Shown: piece after piece, positions 23,562 to 29,312 of the stretch
Layout of the letters: every line of letters begins with the position of its first letter
How positions within the stretch are numbered: position 1 is the first letter of the stretch
Source: Escherichia phage vB_EcoM_NBG2
DNA: 64,000 nucleotides
Strand: one strand, 5' to 3'
Sequence record: NC_054925.1
Position numbers and translations under genes: made by a program
Notes under the pieces: model-generated
What the model was told of the DNA's origin: nothing
Database searches by the model: none
The model's input: only the letters and a program-made list of their open reading frames with translations

Positions 23562-25658
23562 TTATCCTTGAACGAACTTGTAAGGCATGTTTGTAATATC
23601 TATGCAAGACGCAATAATTCCAAGAGATGATTCTACTTTCTGTTTAACATTTGATGAAACAAATGATGCAAAGTCAACTCTGTCTTCTATTTCAATATCA
23701 TCTGTCATTGCAACTACTTCACCCGTTTCCATTAGACGGTCACCGTCATAAATTACTGATTCGGTGAGTTCTTCCGTAGTCATAACTTCAGCTTGAATGA
23801 GTTTTGTATTATTAGATGTTGTTCCGTCATTATTAGAAGCATCAGTTATTTTATTAACTTTGACCATCAATCCGCGCGGTAGAATAACTTCAGCTTCAGT
23901 TGCTATTCCGAGACTTCCTGGATATACAACATTAACTTTATGAGCTCCATCAATTGCCCATCCTATTTGAACTTTAACGTATTCAGGATTTTCTTTATAC
24001 GCTCTTATTTCGTTTGGATTAATAGTTATTCCTTCTTCATTTTTATCAACTGTTAATTCATTACGAGCTTCTGGTTCTAAAAGACCGATACCAGCATGTG
24101 TAATTCCAAAACGTCCAAAAATGATAGGAGTTAAAGAAGTAGATACAAAATTTCTGAAATAGAACACTTTATTTTTAACTAGCGCTTCGTATATAGGAGC
24201 AGTCATACTTTGAGCACGATAAACTGTAATGCCCTCTGGTATACGGTCACCATTTTCAAAAGCTGAATCTAAATTATTTATCGCAGATTCAATTTCTTTT
24301 TCACTCATTACATCATATCGTTCTGGATTGTAGCGGCCTAAAAGAAGATTATTGATGTCAGTATATCCTGATCCACAATACTCTCTAATGCCGCGCTTTT
24401 GCGATGGAGTATATTTAGAACCATCACGTGCAATGGTAATATCAATCATTGGACCTGCACCAATTCCAGAAAAGCTATAAATCATTCGTTTGAGGAATTT
24501 AGTTTTTGCTGCGTTCCAGGAATTTTTAGTTATTTCTTCCCAGACTTCATCTGGCTGCCCTTTACGAGTTTTATTATGTTTATCAAGCCAATTATCTTTA
24601 TATTCTTCAAATAATTGATTAACAGCTGCTGCGTATTTCTCTAAACATTTTATTGAAGTAGTTGGTTCATTTTTAATCGCATTAAGAATTACATCTTTAA
24701 TTTTTTCAGAAACTTCATTAACCTCACTTTTTGAAAAGAATTTATAGTCATAGTGAAGTTCATCTGCGGTTCCTTCGGCAATAATTTTTGCTGCCTTAGT
24801 TTTAGAAGCTAATGAATTAATTCCAAGCTTCATTTCTTCTGCTTCGGGAATTAAAGGAGCTGTAGCAGGTTTATTGAAATTAGCTGCGGTAGATTCATAT
24901 TTCTGGAATAATTCGCTTTCAAATCTAGAAGATTCTAATGACTGACTTTGTGCAATTGCTCTACGGGAAATTTTAACTTTAACGATAACAGCTTGGTCAG
25001 AGCGTTTATCATTTTCTTGTGCAATAGATGCTGCAATTGCCTCATTTTTAGTTACTTGAGCTCCAGTATCTTTATTGATATAAACATCGCCGACTTTCGA
25101 TTCAACCTTAGTAAAGAGCTCGGTACTAATTTCAGGAACTCCTGGAATGTCTTCTAGTGATACATTTTTGCGATGTATAAGAATATATGCGTACTTTTTA
25201 TCATAATCCCAGAGTTCCTTAAGAAGGACGTATCTGCCACCTGAACGACTACGGATAAGTCTATCAGCAATAACTTGAATTTGTCGAGCTTGACCAGCAG
25301 TTTTAGACTTAAGAATACGAAGCATACAGGCATCAATTTTATACTGACGCATCGTCTGCATTGCAACAGTAAAAACTGAATTGATGTAATTAATTGGGCT
25401 TGGACCGAGACCTTTTAATTTAGCAATTGAACCTTTAGCAGTTAATGTAAAAGGAACAATATGCATCATTTTATCGCCCATTTTTAAATCGCGATTAGTA
25501 TCACCTCCAGATGTATAGGTACATAAACGAAAGCCTGGTTGTTCAATTGCATCATCAACATGAACTGAAAAAATTTGTGGTATTTTCTTCTTTGGATTTA
25601 AGTTTGTAATCGGAAGAGTAGTATCTTCGTCAAATAATTCTGTAATGAGTTCCATCAT
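23562..25658 (-). CDS. alt: Alt ADP-ribosyltransferase (698 aa), ligase-proximal copy
   Basis: Same architecture and R-S-E motifs (VYRAQ, FVSTSL, EAEVILPRG); position next to gene 30 as for T4 alt; which copy is orthologous to T4 alt is uncertain. Confidence 0.8.
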   Translation of the reverse strand: MMELITELFDEDTTLPITNLNPKKKIPQIFSVHVDDAIEQPGFRLCTYTSGGDTNRDLKMGDKMMHIVPFTLTAKGSIAKLKGLGPSPINYINSVFTVAMQTMRQYKIDACMLRILKSKTAGQARQIQVIADRLIRSRSGGRYVLLKELWDYDKKYAYILIHRKNVSLEDIPGVPEISTELFTKVESKVGDVYINKDTGAQVTKNEAIAASIAQENDKRSDQAVIVKVKISRRAIAQSQSLESSRFESELFQKYESTAANFNKPATAPLIPEAEEMKLGINSLASKTKAAKIIAEGTADELHYDYKFFSKSEVNEVSEKIKDVILNAIKNEPTTSIKCLEKYAAAVNQLFEEYKDNWLDKHNKTRKGQPDEVWEEITKNSWNAAKTKFLKRMIYSFSGIGAGPMIDITIARDGSKYTPSQKRGIREYCGSGYTDINNLLLGRYNPERYDVMSEKEIESAINNLDSAFENGDRIPEGITVYRAQSMTAPIYEALVKNKVFYFRNFVSTSLTPIIFGRFGITHAGIGLLEPEARNELTVDKNEEGITINPNEIRAYKENPEYVKVQIGWAIDGAHKVNVVYPGSLGIATEAEVILPRGLMVKVNKITDASNNDGTTSNNTKLIQAEVMTTEELTESVIYDGDRLMETGEVVAMTDDIEIEDRVDFASFVSSNVKQKVESSLGIIASCIDITNMPYKFVQG

Positions 25659-25709: not shown

Positions 25710-25896
25710 AATAATCTAGTGGTAAGAGAGTACGATATATTTCAAACTTTGGACCTTTTTCGTAGGCATCAAATGTTTCTGTAAATTTATTATAAGCATA
25801 TGCATCTACAAATTCGAGAATGACTTGTGATACCGAAGTAGAAACATCTCCACCTTCTTTTTGAGCAACGACAATTGTTTCTAAGTAAGCTTTCAT
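25708..25896 (-). CDS. hypothetical protein
   Basis: 62-aa ORF, ATGA overlap with the ligase stop. Confidence 0.5.
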   Translation of the reverse strand: MKAYLETIVVAQKEGGDVSTSVSQVILEFVDAYAYNKFTETFDAYEKGPKFEIYRTLLPLDY

Positions 25897-27353
25897 AAAC
25901 CAGTTACCTCATGAAAATCACCAAATACATCCTCGAATGTATTAGCTTTAGTTTTATCTTCACGTAAACGAATCGCAATTGGAAGAAATAATTTAACGTA
26001 ATCAGTGCGACCATCAGATTTTAACCAACCATTGCATTCGCACTCTAGAATTTTTCCAATATAATAATTTTGGTTTTCCATAATGCGAGTACGGTCAAGT
26101 TCATGTGATTTTACACCGGCTTTATCTTTTAAGCCTGAACCAGCATTTACTTTAATTTTTCCACACTCTGATTCAAGAATAAATCCACCCGCTTTAGTAG
26201 GGTCTTTACGGTGAGGATAAATTCCTACAATTTTTAAATCAACATCAATTACTTCTTTAAATTTATAGAGATTTTTTGAACGAGCATTTTCCCACAATCC
26301 ATCGGTATTTTTGAGAATAATACCTTCAAGACCTTGGTCAATATATTTTTTATAAATTACCTTAGCTTCATCTAGGTTATTTACTACTTGGTTTTCAATT
26401 AAAATTACTTTATCATATCCTGATGTCATTTGTTCTAGTTTAGAAAAACGTACATCATATTTTAAACGAAACGCCGGAAGACCGTATATTTCTACCAACG
26501 GAACATAATCCCAGACCTGAAACTTCATACATTGGGCTTCTTTTTCTGAAATAGTTCCCTTTAAAGATTTATTAGCGATTCCATTAGAAGCAGTACGAGA
26601 TTCAGCTACTTCTGTGAAGTCTTTAGCTTTGCTAATTTCAGGAGTGTCAAAAAGAAAATCTAGGCCTTCTGGTTCCTTTTTAACTTGCTCATGGTATACC
26701 AATTCGCCATCAATTAACACACCTTCTGGATGAATCTGGCGGGCTTCAGCGGTCATTTTGATTAACTCTTCCTTAAGAAGATCTAATCCTAGATATTCAT
26801 TACCAGCTCGTGATAAAAGACGAACATCATCTAATTCATCTCCTCTGACTTCAGCAAAACACCGGGCTCCATCTGCTTTTAACTGCGCAAAAGCTGGAAA
26901 TTTGATATTCTTACTAATGCCTTTTTCATCATAAGAACTTGCAAGCATTTGAGGTTGTTCAGGAATTAAACCTGGCCAAACTTTGTTTGCAATAGATACT
27001 GAAGCACCGCATTCAAGGTCTCGCATCATAACTCGGCGCAAAACTTCAACATCATCCTTTTTACCATCGGTGATATATCCAGTTAATTCCTCAATTGCTG
27101 CATTTCCAGTCAATTTCCGAGTAGCTAACGTAAATTCAATAAAGTCAAGCATATCGGTAATGGTCAGCATTCCAAAACTCTGGGTAGCAATACCAGGCTT
27201 AGGCCATTTCTTGATATAATACTGTAACCCACGAGAATAAGTCAGACGATATACTCGTTTAAGCAATTCATTATCTTTATTCTTTTCAAGAATTGCTTGC
27301 TTCTGCTTAGTTGATCCAATAGATGCTATTTCATTCAGAATTTTAAGAATCAT
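25893..27353 (-). CDS. 30: ATP-dependent DNA ligase gp30
   Basis: 486 aa; adenylation motif KADGAR; sequence recognised as T4 DNA ligase. Confidence 0.97.
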   Translation of the reverse strand: MILKILNEIASIGSTKQKQAILEKNKDNELLKRVYRLTYSRGLQYYIKKWPKPGIATQSFGMLTITDMLDFIEFTLATRKLTGNAAIEELTGYITDGKKDDVEVLRRVMMRDLECGASVSIANKVWPGLIPEQPQMLASSYDEKGISKNIKFPAFAQLKADGARCFAEVRGDELDDVRLLSRAGNEYLGLDLLKEELIKMTAEARQIHPEGVLIDGELVYHEQVKKEPEGLDFLFDTPEISKAKDFTEVAESRTASNGIANKSLKGTISEKEAQCMKFQVWDYVPLVEIYGLPAFRLKYDVRFSKLEQMTSGYDKVILIENQVVNNLDEAKVIYKKYIDQGLEGIILKNTDGLWENARSKNLYKFKEVIDVDLKIVGIYPHRKDPTKAGGFILESECGKIKVNAGSGLKDKAGVKSHELDRTRIMENQNYYIGKILECECNGWLKSDGRTDYVKLFLPIAIRLREDKTKANTFEDVFGDFHEVTGL

Positions 27354-27619
27354 TGTTCATCCTTCAGAGTTTGATTTACATCTCTATTATAAATCAATTC
27401 ATCATTAAGCTCAGGCAAAGACTTATGATATGTAGTTCTAACTTTATTTCCTTGCATCCAGTGCTTGACGTAAATGAAACCTTGCTCTACACATTTTTTA
27501 AAAATTCGTTCGTCTTTTTGAGCACGGAATTCTGGATTGCATCTAAAAAATTGATTTACGTGACCGTAATCACGTGTAGTATTACCTTCATTTTCATAAA
27601 TAGTATGAACAACAAACAT
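27350..27619 (-). CDS. hypothetical protein (30.1-like)
   Basis: 89-aa ORF, ATGA-coupled to ligase. Confidence 0.6.
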   Translation of the reverse strand: MFVVHTIYENEGNTTRDYGHVNQFFRCNPEFRAQKDERIFKKCVEQGFIYVKHWMQGNKVRTTYHKSLPELNDELIYNRDVNQTLKDEQ

Positions 27620-28464
27620 TAGAATGCTCCTTGAAAAATATTATCACCACTAGTAGGTCTATTATACAAATACTCTATGCCACCAGGTTTAATATAGTTC
27701 CATGTCTGAAACGGATATGTCTGATATGGATAATATGGATGATATAGATTATAAGGATTAAATCCAGGCGTTCTCCAGGTAGTGTTCCAAGGAAAAGAAT
27801 CGTTTTTAACCATCTTCTCAATTACATCTTTTATAGCTTTTTCACTATCAAAATTTTCTTTATTTTCCTTCGGTGAAAAAAGCTTATTTTCTACATCATT
27901 CCATGTATAAACTCGCTGAGCAGTTTTTGGAATATTGTCACGTTCTCCTCGAGCCATCCAATAAACCGGAACATTTAATATTTCACTCGCGTGGTCGCAG
28001 TGGTGAGCGAGATCGTCAATATAACAAATTACGTTATATTTCTCTTTTGCCTTTTTAAACAACTCTTCTTTTGAAGAATCATGACCACACATCATTACTT
28101 CTGAGAAGGCACCAGGAAAAAGAGCATTCAAATTAAATTGACGATTTAATAGAGCATCAATAGAATCACCCAATGCTGTAACAGCTACAAAATTATAATC
28201 TTCTTTTAATTTGTTAATTACACACAGGGCATCTTTATACGGAGACAAGTAACGAATAAAATCTGAACGATTGTATTTTTCAATTAACTTGACGCCAAGT
28301 TCTTCGTCACAATTAAAGAGTTTACCTGGAGAAATAAATTTCTCATCTTGGATCATTTTTAAAATATGTTCTAATGGAAGATTATATTTCTGAGCAAAAT
28401 AAGGAAGGCCTGATTGCCAGCTTAAACATACTCCATCAATATCAGTCAAAATAGTTGGCTTCAT
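27619..28464 (-). CDS. HAD-superfamily hydrolase-like protein (30.2-like) with aromatic/Pro-rich C-terminal tail
   Basis: N-terminal LTDIDGV (HAD motif I) and later YIDDL (motif IV); C-terminal 55 aa rich in Y/P/W/N. Confidence 0.65.
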   Translation of the reverse strand: MKPTILTDIDGVCLSWQSGLPYFAQKYNLPLEHILKMIQDEKFISPGKLFNCDEELGVKLIEKYNRSDFIRYLSPYKDALCVINKLKEDYNFVAVTALGDSIDALLNRQFNLNALFPGAFSEVMMCGHDSSKEELFKKAKEKYNVICYIDDLAHHCDHASEILNVPVYWMARGERDNIPKTAQRVYTWNDVENKLFSPKENKENFDSEKAIKDVIEKMVKNDSFPWNTTWRTPGFNPYNLYHPYYPYQTYPFQTWNYIKPGGIEYLYNRPTSGDNIFQGAF

Positions 28465-28925
28465 AGAGAGTCTCTTAATAGGTTTAACACATCAATAAAT
28501 TCAGCTTCGGTTAGTATTGTATCATCTTTTGTTAGACCACTAGCCATGCTGTGCTTCAAAACTTTTCCTTTCGAGGCTTGTAATGCATCACGAAAGCCCC
28601 TGTTTTGGATCGCTGCTTCAAAATATGCATTTGTGTATAATTCTTTCCATGCTTCGGAATATCTTGAAAACGGAGTTCCAAGCCAGAACAACGTGCCACG
28701 GTCCTGAGCTCTTGCATAAGCTCGTCCAGCTTTTTGCGCATCCAACCCGGACATCCCAAATATGCGTCTTTGCTGTTCAACATTTTTCACCTTACACCCT
28801 TGGAGGAATCCTTCGAGACCTCCAAATTGGATACCATCCATAACGAAAGGCCATTGGGCGAAATTGCTTAATGCACATGATGGCCATCTAAAATTGCTTC
28901 TTATCTCTAGCTCAGACATTTTCAA
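28461..28925 (-). CDS. NADAR (YbiA/DUF1768-like) domain protein (30.3-like)
   Basis: N-terminal LSNFAQWPF...DG...LEGFLQ motif resembling the NADAR signature; TTG start in ORF track with ATG 2 codons downstream. Confidence 0.6.
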   Translation of the reverse strand: MKMSELEIRSNFRWPSCALSNFAQWPFVMDGIQFGGLEGFLQGCKVKNVEQQRRIFGMSGLDAQKAGRAYARAQDRGTLFWLGTPFSRYSEAWKELYTNAYFEAAIQNRGFRDALQASKGKVLKHSMASGLTKDDTILTEAEFIDVLNLLRDSL

Positions 28926-29118
28926 TACTTATAATTTCAACATCAGCCCAATGACCATAGCAAGGAAGACGAAATTCAACTGGCCAGTTAGGGTCCTTTT
29001 CTAATATAATAGACTTAACTTGTGGTTCTTCATGTTCATCGGTATACGGACCTTTATACGTTACTTTATATGTGACCTTAATGTACTGAATTCCAAAAAT
29101 CTTATTAATTATATTCAT
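28912..29118 (-). CDS. hypothetical protein
   Basis: 68-aa ORF in the 30.x cluster. Confidence 0.5.
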   Translation of the reverse strand: MNIINKIFGIQYIKVTYKVTYKGPYTDEHEEPQVKSIILEKDPNWPVEFRLPCYGHWADVEIISIENV

Positions 29119-29312
29119 ACTAATTCCTTTAATCCATAGATAGGAGATAATTCATCACCCATACGAAGGTCTTCATTTCCATCTACCCAGGAAACAATAT
29201 AAGCCTCTTTTATTTGAACGTCTCTCCATTTAAATGCAGGCAAAACCTTAGAAATTAATCCAGGTATACCGACTCCCTTTAATTCAACAGTTTGACCCAA
29301 AAAGAATTTCAT
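29115..29312 (-). CDS. hypothetical protein
   Basis: 65-aa ORF, ATGA-coupled. Confidence 0.5.
   Translation of the reverse strand: MKFFLGQTVELKGVGIPGLISKVLPAFKWRDVQIKEAYIVSWVDGNEDLRMGDELSPIYGLKELV

Follow-up and report, generated by a model that had tools for sequence, protein, structure and literature searches.

Gene 30.3 of Escherichia phage vB_EcoM_NBG2 as an adfN allele, and its relation to the neighbouring phosphatase and ligase genes

The sequence considered here is a stretch of 64,000 nucleotides from Escherichia phage vB_EcoM_NBG2 (NC_054925.1), referred to below as the window, and is part of a Tequatrovirus (T4-like) genome. Gene 30.3, at 28461..28919 on the minus strand, is very probably the anti-DarT gene adfN, the product of which would reverse the marks left on DNA by DarT1. 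The neighbouring gene 30.2 would encode a separate HAD phosphatase, a companion of the ligase gene, and the three genes would not form a module. An earlier note, made from the letters alone, had described a NADAR-like protein and a HAD-like hydrolase encoded next to DNA ligase, and had suggested that they act together in DNA de-ADP-ribosylation and repair or in anti-defence. The anti-DarT function of the NADAR gene proved correct but is already known from the literature, and the HAD fold was also supported, whereas the three-gene module was not.

Gene 30.3 and the AdfN function

The product of gene 30.3 (gp30.3) matches the Pfam family PF08010 (Phage_30_3) with E = 2.7e-68 and 228.5 bits, against a cut-off of 36. 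It is 95% identical to T4 gp30.3 over the full length of the protein (144/152 residues, no gaps). The eight differences, with the T4 residue given first, are L56M, A60D, Q63K, S67A, V82T, P89E, K107R and I125M, and none of them falls at an invariant position of the family. The open reading frame (ORF) delimited mechanically, 28461..28925, begins at a TTG and would specify 154 aa. The true start is predicted to be the ATG at 28919, giving a protein of 152 aa, because the annotated T4 gp30.3 has 152 aa and because in the window the gene, when begun at this ATG, overlaps the end of gene 30.4, stop codon included, by 8 nt, within ATGTCTGA.

The block SNFAQWPF..DG..LEGFLQ, in which the earlier note had seen a NADAR signature, spans residues 18-40, where conservation within the family is highest. 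As it also aligns to YbiA, the resemblance is not due to chance. Residues S18, N19, F20, F25, E36, G37, F38 and Q40 are invariant within it. Both catalytic residues of the NADAR motif E-x-F/Y-x-Q-x-x-K are present: the Glu is E36 (codon 28812-28814), invariant in 64 family sequences, and the Lys is K43 (28791-28793), at least 90% conserved in the same set. H123 (28551-28553, within VLKHSM) is invariant in the 64 members. The C-terminal helix is also kept, since the alignment to T4 extends to residue 152, ending ...TEAEFIDVLNLLRDSL.

The relation to the NADAR superfamily only emerges at the level of family profiles. The window protein itself has no match to the Pfam NADAR family PF08719, matching PF08010 only. 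A single-sequence phmmer search of gp30.3 against the PDB returned nothing relevant, and a search of NCBIfam gave no match for gp30.3 or gp30.2. Family profiles were therefore needed for both proteins. The gp30.3 family comprises 1661 cluster representatives at E <= 0.001 among 1.84 billion proteins. Alignment of its profile by hhalign to that of the YbiA family, built from 31 sequences, gave a probability of 97.3% and E = 2.5e-11 over 137 columns, so that the profile search proposed in the earlier note did return a NADAR hit. E36 and K43 of gp30.3 are paired with E48 and K55 of YbiA, and H123 is set within one residue of the invariant E125 of YbiA. The only match of the gp30.3-family profile in the whole PDB was E. 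coli YbiA (2b3w, E = 0.0019), on the N-terminal motif. PF08719 was matched by 27/64 aligned family members, with a best E of 1.5e-7, and many relatives carry the Joint Genome Institute (JGI) label YbiA/DUF1768 family, some with both Pfam domains. The AlphaFold2 model of gp30.3 as a single sequence had a predicted local distance difference test (pLDDT) score of 44, too low to bear on the fold. On the profile evidence, gp30.3 can be assigned to the NADAR superfamily.

It has been reported that T4 gp30.3 frees guanine in DNA from ADP-ribose and counters DarT1/DarTG1 (PMC11825919, PMC11125620), the guanine de-ADP-ribosylation of DNA having been demonstrated in vitro by two laboratories. The protein had been identified as a phage NADAR by earlier bioinformatic work, as cited by the later literature. 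A study by Cihlova et al. (Toxins 2024) noted that T4 gp30.3 acts in vitro on guanine-linked, not thymine-linked, ADP-ribose in DNA. Johannesman et al. (Nat Commun 2025) named it AdfN, the anti-DarT factor NADAR, and by deletion and complementation found it both necessary and sufficient for resistance to DarTG1 in T-even infection. In that study T4 AdfN was impaired by E36A and K43A, indicating its dependence on both residues, and DarT1 was not bound by AdfN. Full activity was seen only in T-even infection, which implies a further phage factor. The adfN allele of RB69 is frameshifted, has lost the C-terminal helix and is inactive. A His in the last strand (H123 here) is reported as the hallmark of the phage clade, in place of Glu in YbiA or Asp in the DarG1-type proteins. 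A 2025 preprint on transposon sequencing (Tn-seq) of T4 by HIDEN-SEQ independently recorded the loss of 30.3 insertions on DarTG1, with a log2 fold change (log2FC) of -7.25 and an adjusted p = 0. The activity to which the earlier note had pointed, the de-ADP-ribosylation of DNA guanines and the reversal of DarT-type marks, has thus been shown for an ortholog that is 95% identical.

In the mechanism proposed, adfN would be expressed early and encode a single-domain NADAR enzyme, an orphan relative of the antitoxin DarG1 by homology. Host DarT1 would ADP-ribosylate guanines in the replicating phage DNA, and AdfN would hydrolyse the N-glycosidic linkage of ADP-ribose to the base to give unmodified guanine. 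With guanine restored, replication could continue and the DarTG1 defence would fail. AdfN would not bind the toxin, nor would it act on thymine-linked ADP-ribose, the product of DarT2. For this phage we infer these steps from the T4 ortholog, on the basis of the 95% identity and the intact catalytic and invariant residues. The window would contribute one more intact adfN allele, which predicts resistance of this phage to DarTG1.

A different primary role has been argued from gene context by Iyer et al. (2022), according to whom phage NADARs are expressed early alongside ADP-ribosyltransferases (ARTs) and may prefer low-molecular-weight ADP-ribose derivatives. Gp30.3 would then mainly hydrolyse soluble ADP-ribose derivatives, or correct the off-target products of phage ARTs, with the reversal of DarT marks as a secondary effect. 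The presence of Alt in the same early block, 2.8 kb from 30.3, fits such a role, as does the finding of Cihlova et al. (2024) that T4 gp30.3 fails to relieve DarT1 toxicity in uninfected cells. However, DNA de-ADP-ribosylation and DarTG1 counter-defence are directly supported by both genetics and biochemistry. In the T4 Tn-seq, moreover, 30.3 is dispensable in LB and M9 when DarTG1 is absent, and alt insertions are neutral on DarTG1. A soluble substrate as the main target is accordingly held to be quite improbable, and the reversal of DarT1 marks on DNA is the function preferred for gp30.3.

Several further observations concern gene 30.3 and its relatives. A C-terminally shortened adfN was suspected in two homologous loci (L005 and L006), where the tblastn match ran to residue 144, and both proved to be full-length. 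Within 30.3, a 75-codon ORF in an alternative frame (28556-28783, minus strand), annotated in T4 as 30.3', is open in the window too. The frame is open in 10/11 close homologs. Most of these, however, have ACG, ATT or ATA in place of its ATG, and this frame drifts in sequence far more than the main 30.3 frame. Given the loss of the start codon and the strong drift, the case for 30.3' as a real gene appears weak. Among the gp30.3-type NADAR relatives (P0204, P0206, P0219, P0256, P0271, P0241 and P0322), some have two to three tandem NADAR repeats. Others are apparent fusions to prolipoprotein diacylglyceryl transferase, BspA-type leucine-rich repeats, GDSL lipase or an FtsW-like domain, some of which may be gene-calling artefacts of metagenomes.

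Linkage of genes 30.3, 30.2 and ligase

Gene 30.2 occupies 27619..28464 on the minus strand (281 aa, stop codon 27619-27621), overlapping the end of 30.3 by 4 nt. The ligase gene, gene 30, lies nearby on the same strand at 25893..27353. It encodes an ATP-dependent DNA ligase of 486 aa (Pfam PF01068, E = 7.8e-33) which is 98% identical to T4 ligase. The description of the pair as next to ligase was right as to proximity, but the genes are not immediately adjacent, as gene 30.1 (27350..27619, minus strand) sits between ligase and 30.2. Gene 30.1 encodes an 89-aa DUF3045 protein (Pfam PF11243, E = 4.7e-62) and was found in closer relatives only.

The idea that the NADAR (30.3), HAD (30.2) and ligase (30) proteins constitute one de-ADP-ribosylation and repair or anti-defence module draws on the arrangement of the genes. 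All three are found on one strand inside a 3-kb stretch, and their stops and starts overlap. In addition, AdfN(T4) needs a further T-even factor. Conservation of the arrangement was assessed in viral contigs extending 3 kb or more beyond the anchor gene on either side, each anchored scan taking the best 80 loci, of which 67 could be counted for gp30.3 and 72 for gp30.2. Where gp30.3 identity was at least 80%, 30.2 and ligase were present in all 12 loci and the order 30.3-30.2-30.1-ligase was kept, which speaks for the module.

Across the wider set the association falls away. Gene 30.2 was found within 2 kb of gp30.3 in just 19/67 loci, and ligase within 3.5 kb in 20/67. Below 43% identity, only 5-6 of 52 loci had both. 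In several T4-like genomes, complete and 170-174 kb in size (L025/L147, L076/L100 and L078/L099), about 55-60 kb separate the gp30.3 homolog from 30.2 and ligase, an example being contig UViG_2706796756, which was seen as both L078 and L099. Such distances imply that the NADAR gene has moved between regions during the evolution of the Straboviridae. The gp30.2-anchored loci present the opposite picture, with ligase within 2 kb in 70/72, down to about 40% identity, and gp30.3 in 36/72. In none of the 72 was gp30.3 found without ligase. Genes 30.1, 30.3 and alt come and go around the 30.2-ligase pair (loci L082-L161). Even in three distant loci where the order is inverted to ligase, two small ORFs and 30.2 (L157, L158 and L160), the pair is still adjacent.

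A sample of 10 long multidomain members of the gp30.3 family showed no fusion to a HAD or ligase domain. The overlapping stops and starts are generic, as nine consecutive genes of the minus strand between 25708 and 30017 (30.7, 30.6, 30.5, 30.4, 30.3, 30.2, 30.1, 30 and alt.1) share 1-11 nt with the genes next to them. For this reason the ATGA at the 30.3/30.2 junction was rejected as a sign of specific translational coupling. In the T4 Tn-seq, 30.2 insertions were neutral on DarTG1 (log2FC -0.12, p = 0.61), so 30.2 is dispensable for DarTG1 resistance and the module is largely refuted as far as 30.2 is concerned. The neutral phenotype, the weak co-localisation and the absence of HAD fusions in the 10 proteins sampled also led to the rejection of gp30.2 as the T-even factor potentiating AdfN. 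The NADAR reaction, finally, leaves intact DNA with nothing to ligate. Since removal of the N-glycosidic ADP-ribose would restore guanine without a nick, as judged from the published chemistry, no ligation step should be needed.

A three-gene repair module is thus considered highly improbable. From the loci counts, the fusions, the overlaps and the neutral Tn-seq result together, it is concluded that in evolution 30.2 has accompanied the ligase gene and not adfN, and that adfN is a mobile early gene which stands beside 30.2 and ligase by chance in T-even phages. The three genes occur together here because they belong to one tightly packed early-gene string. The linkage of 30.2 to ligase suggests a functional tie but does not prove one, since gene order is generally conserved in T4-like phages and each scan covered the best 80 loci.

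The product of gene 30.2 and a possible role for gene 30.4

The protein gp30.2 is 96% identical to its T4 counterpart. A Pfam search gave no match for it, no named Pfam family covers it, and a literature search for gp30.2 returned zero papers. The HAD motifs recognised in the earlier note, DIDGV and YIDDL, fall where the family is most conserved, so that chance does not account for them, and they are borne out by a model with the HAD fold. Motif I (DIDGV, residues 8-12) provides D8 and D10 (28441-28443 and 28435-28437), motif II T96 (28177-28179), motif III K132 (28069-28071) and motif IV (YIDDL, residues 148-152) D150 and D151 (28012-28017). A set of 65 homologs, with identities as low as 34%, shows no variation at D8, D10 or K132, and T96, D150 and D151 are kept in 90% or more. 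These residues match the HAD consensus of DxDx[TV] in motif I, S/T in II, K in III and DD in IV. A second Asp in motif I, here D10, marks phosphatases, not dehalogenases.

AlphaFold2 with the 65-homolog alignment gave a pLDDT above 90 over residues 1-200. The model has a Rossmann-like HAD core with the motifs at the expected strand ends, and a helical insert of about 60 residues between residues 16 and 86 that corresponds to a C1 cap. Residues 1-195 (27880..28464, minus strand) would form this C1-capped phosphatase domain. Gp30.2 is therefore described as a putative HAD phosphatase of the Mg-dependent type with intact motifs. The best PDB match of its profile was 2jao, at a marginal E = 0.044, in which W16-x-SGL stands opposite F-E-SGL. 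Pfam PF06941 (NT5C) was matched by 12/65 family members, and the viral structural neighbours are annotated as 5'-nucleotidases. These signals lean towards NT5C, placing gp30.2 closest to the 5'(3')-deoxyribonucleotidases. In general, capped HAD enzymes take small substrates, and those directed at macromolecules, such as Pnkp, are capless. On account of its capped architecture, gp30.2 most likely dephosphorylates a small nucleotide-like substrate. The T4 Tn-seq found 30.2 to be non-essential, with 72/72 sites hit, and neutral in minimal medium M9 (log2FC -0.10), where a phenotype had been sought as a hint of nucleotide metabolism.

The remainder of the protein, residues 196-281 (27622..27879, minus strand), is a predicted disordered tail, with pLDDT below 50 from residue 226. 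It is rich in Trp, Tyr, Pro and Asn and ends GGIEYLYNRPT, GGIEYLYNRPTSGDNIFQGAF. Many gp30.2 homologs have a motif G[IT]EY[LWY]xx[QR]PT close to their C-terminal end. Others have tails of the classes ..LRAYY.. or ..ALLGM.., the length is variable, and many homologs have no tail. A tblastn search matched the tail in the closest relatives only, and a 3-residue indel separates the window from T4 in this region. The tail looks like an exchangeable docking peptide.

The position of 30.2 near ligase invites the proposal that gp30.2 is a DNA-end 3'-phosphatase, healing 3'-phosphate termini for the adjacent ligase in the manner of the HAD domain of T4 Pnkp. Adjacency alone is weak evidence, however, as synteny among T4-like phages is conserved in general. 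The helical C1 cap is at odds with the capless form of macromolecule-directed HADs, the sequence signals favour the NT5C nucleotidases over Pnkp, and T4-type phages already encode Pnkp (pseT). A 3'-phosphatase of this kind is hence judged unlikely, and a small nucleotide-like substrate remains the preferred assignment for gp30.2.

Gene 30.4 (28912..29118, minus strand) encodes a protein of 68 aa assigned to PHROG 2042, of unknown function. In the comparison of control and DarTG1 by T4 HIDEN-SEQ it was depleted with log2FC -1.79 and adjusted p = 0.014, on which the authors make no comment. Besides 30.3, it was the only gene of the block to be depleted on DarTG1, 30.6, 30.7, 30.2 and 30.1 being neutral. 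A 30.4 homolog lies directly upstream of adfN in all fetched loci with at least 85% gp30.3 identity (L002-L014 and L036). The depletion may be a polar effect on adfN. A real contribution is conceivable because AdfN is reported to need a further T-even factor, and as a weak lead 30.4 could be that factor.

A broader proposal concerns gp30.2, which would be a dedicated ligase accessory acting on a nucleotide or DNA-end substrate relevant to ligation and recruited via the tail motif GIEYLxxxPT. The accessory role is suggested because 30.2 is kept beside ligase across the Straboviridae, in 70/72 loci and even where the order is inverted. The proposal is tentative, and rather doubtful. What remains of interest is gp30.2 as a widely conserved, ligase-linked phosphatase, and the T-even factor for AdfN, with Tn-seq arguing against gp30.2 in that role.

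The early-gene string and comparison with known systems

A megablast search with 27300-29200 retrieved 693 phage records, the best being 97-98% identical and nearly all from T4-like phages of Escherichia, Shigella and Yersinia. The order of genes on the minus strand is alt, alt.1, gene 30 ligase, 30.1, 30.2, 30.3, 30.4, 30.5-30.8, rIII, 31 and cd, in gene-for-gene agreement with the T4 reference annotation. The nine-gene run from 30.7 to alt.1 is a single unbroken string with translational coupling. On the minus strand, the promoter-like site that scored best is TTGACA-18-TAAAAT at 30104-30075, just upstream of 30.7. Counts in the promoter and terminator scan were not above those in shuffled sequence (33 vs 31.4 and 4 vs 4.6, respectively), and the scan therefore says nothing on the transcription unit.

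The alt gene (23562-25658, minus strand) encodes the Alt ADP-ribosyltransferase of 698 aa (PF03496, E = 1.6e-37). The window Alt is about 70% identical to T4 Alt, as against 99% to the Alt of other Tequatroviruses (L002 and L004), and the products of the genes around it (ligase, 30.1, 30.2 and 30.3) show 95-98% identity to those of T4. From this contrast alt appears to be a mosaic, fast-evolving allele within an otherwise conserved block.

Of the characterised systems, T4 AdfN is the closest to the window gene. It agrees in position (30.4/30.3/30.2), in its length of 152 aa, in E36, K43 and H123 and in the C-terminal helix, and differs from the window allele by the eight substitutions, the function of the latter being assigned from its ortholog. 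The DarG1-type NADAR antitoxins (Schuller et al., Mol Cell 2023) belong to the same superfamily and carry out the same hydrolysis of guanine-linked ADP-ribose on DNA. Outside the phages, they are reported to be the nearest relatives that the gp30.3 clade has. In contrast to them, the window gene is an orphan, without a DarT partner and without the N-terminal extension, and the last strand of its product has a His where the DarG1-type proteins have an Asp. The T4 ortholog, moreover, cannot replace DarG1 in uninfected cells.

The founding NADAR structure, E. coli YbiA (PDB 2B3W, PF08719), shares the SNFA..DG..E.F.Q..K motif with gp30.3 and is homologous at full length by profile. The YbiA fold has a core of five helices, with two small beta-hairpins flanking it. 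Identity at the profile level is about 23%, and YbiA has a Glu in the last strand and a longer Gly/Asp-rich insert. YbiA is an N-glycosidase with a housekeeping role, and its operon is regulated by LexA.

For gp30.2, the nearest known enzymes are the 5'(3')-deoxyribonucleotidases (PF06941 NT5C; 2JAO, 6G2N and 3BWV), which have the same C1-capped HAD fold and the DD of motif IV. In both, an aromatic residue and SGL come after the DxDGV of motif I (W16-x-S18-G19-L20 in gp30.2, F-E-S-G-L in 2jao). Gp30.2 differs by its additional C-terminal tail, about 85 residues long and predicted to be disordered, and the match is marginal (E = 0.044). T4 Pnkp (PseT; 1LTQ and 5UJ0) has a capless phosphatase domain that acts on polynucleotide ends, whereas gp30.2 is capped and has no kinase domain.

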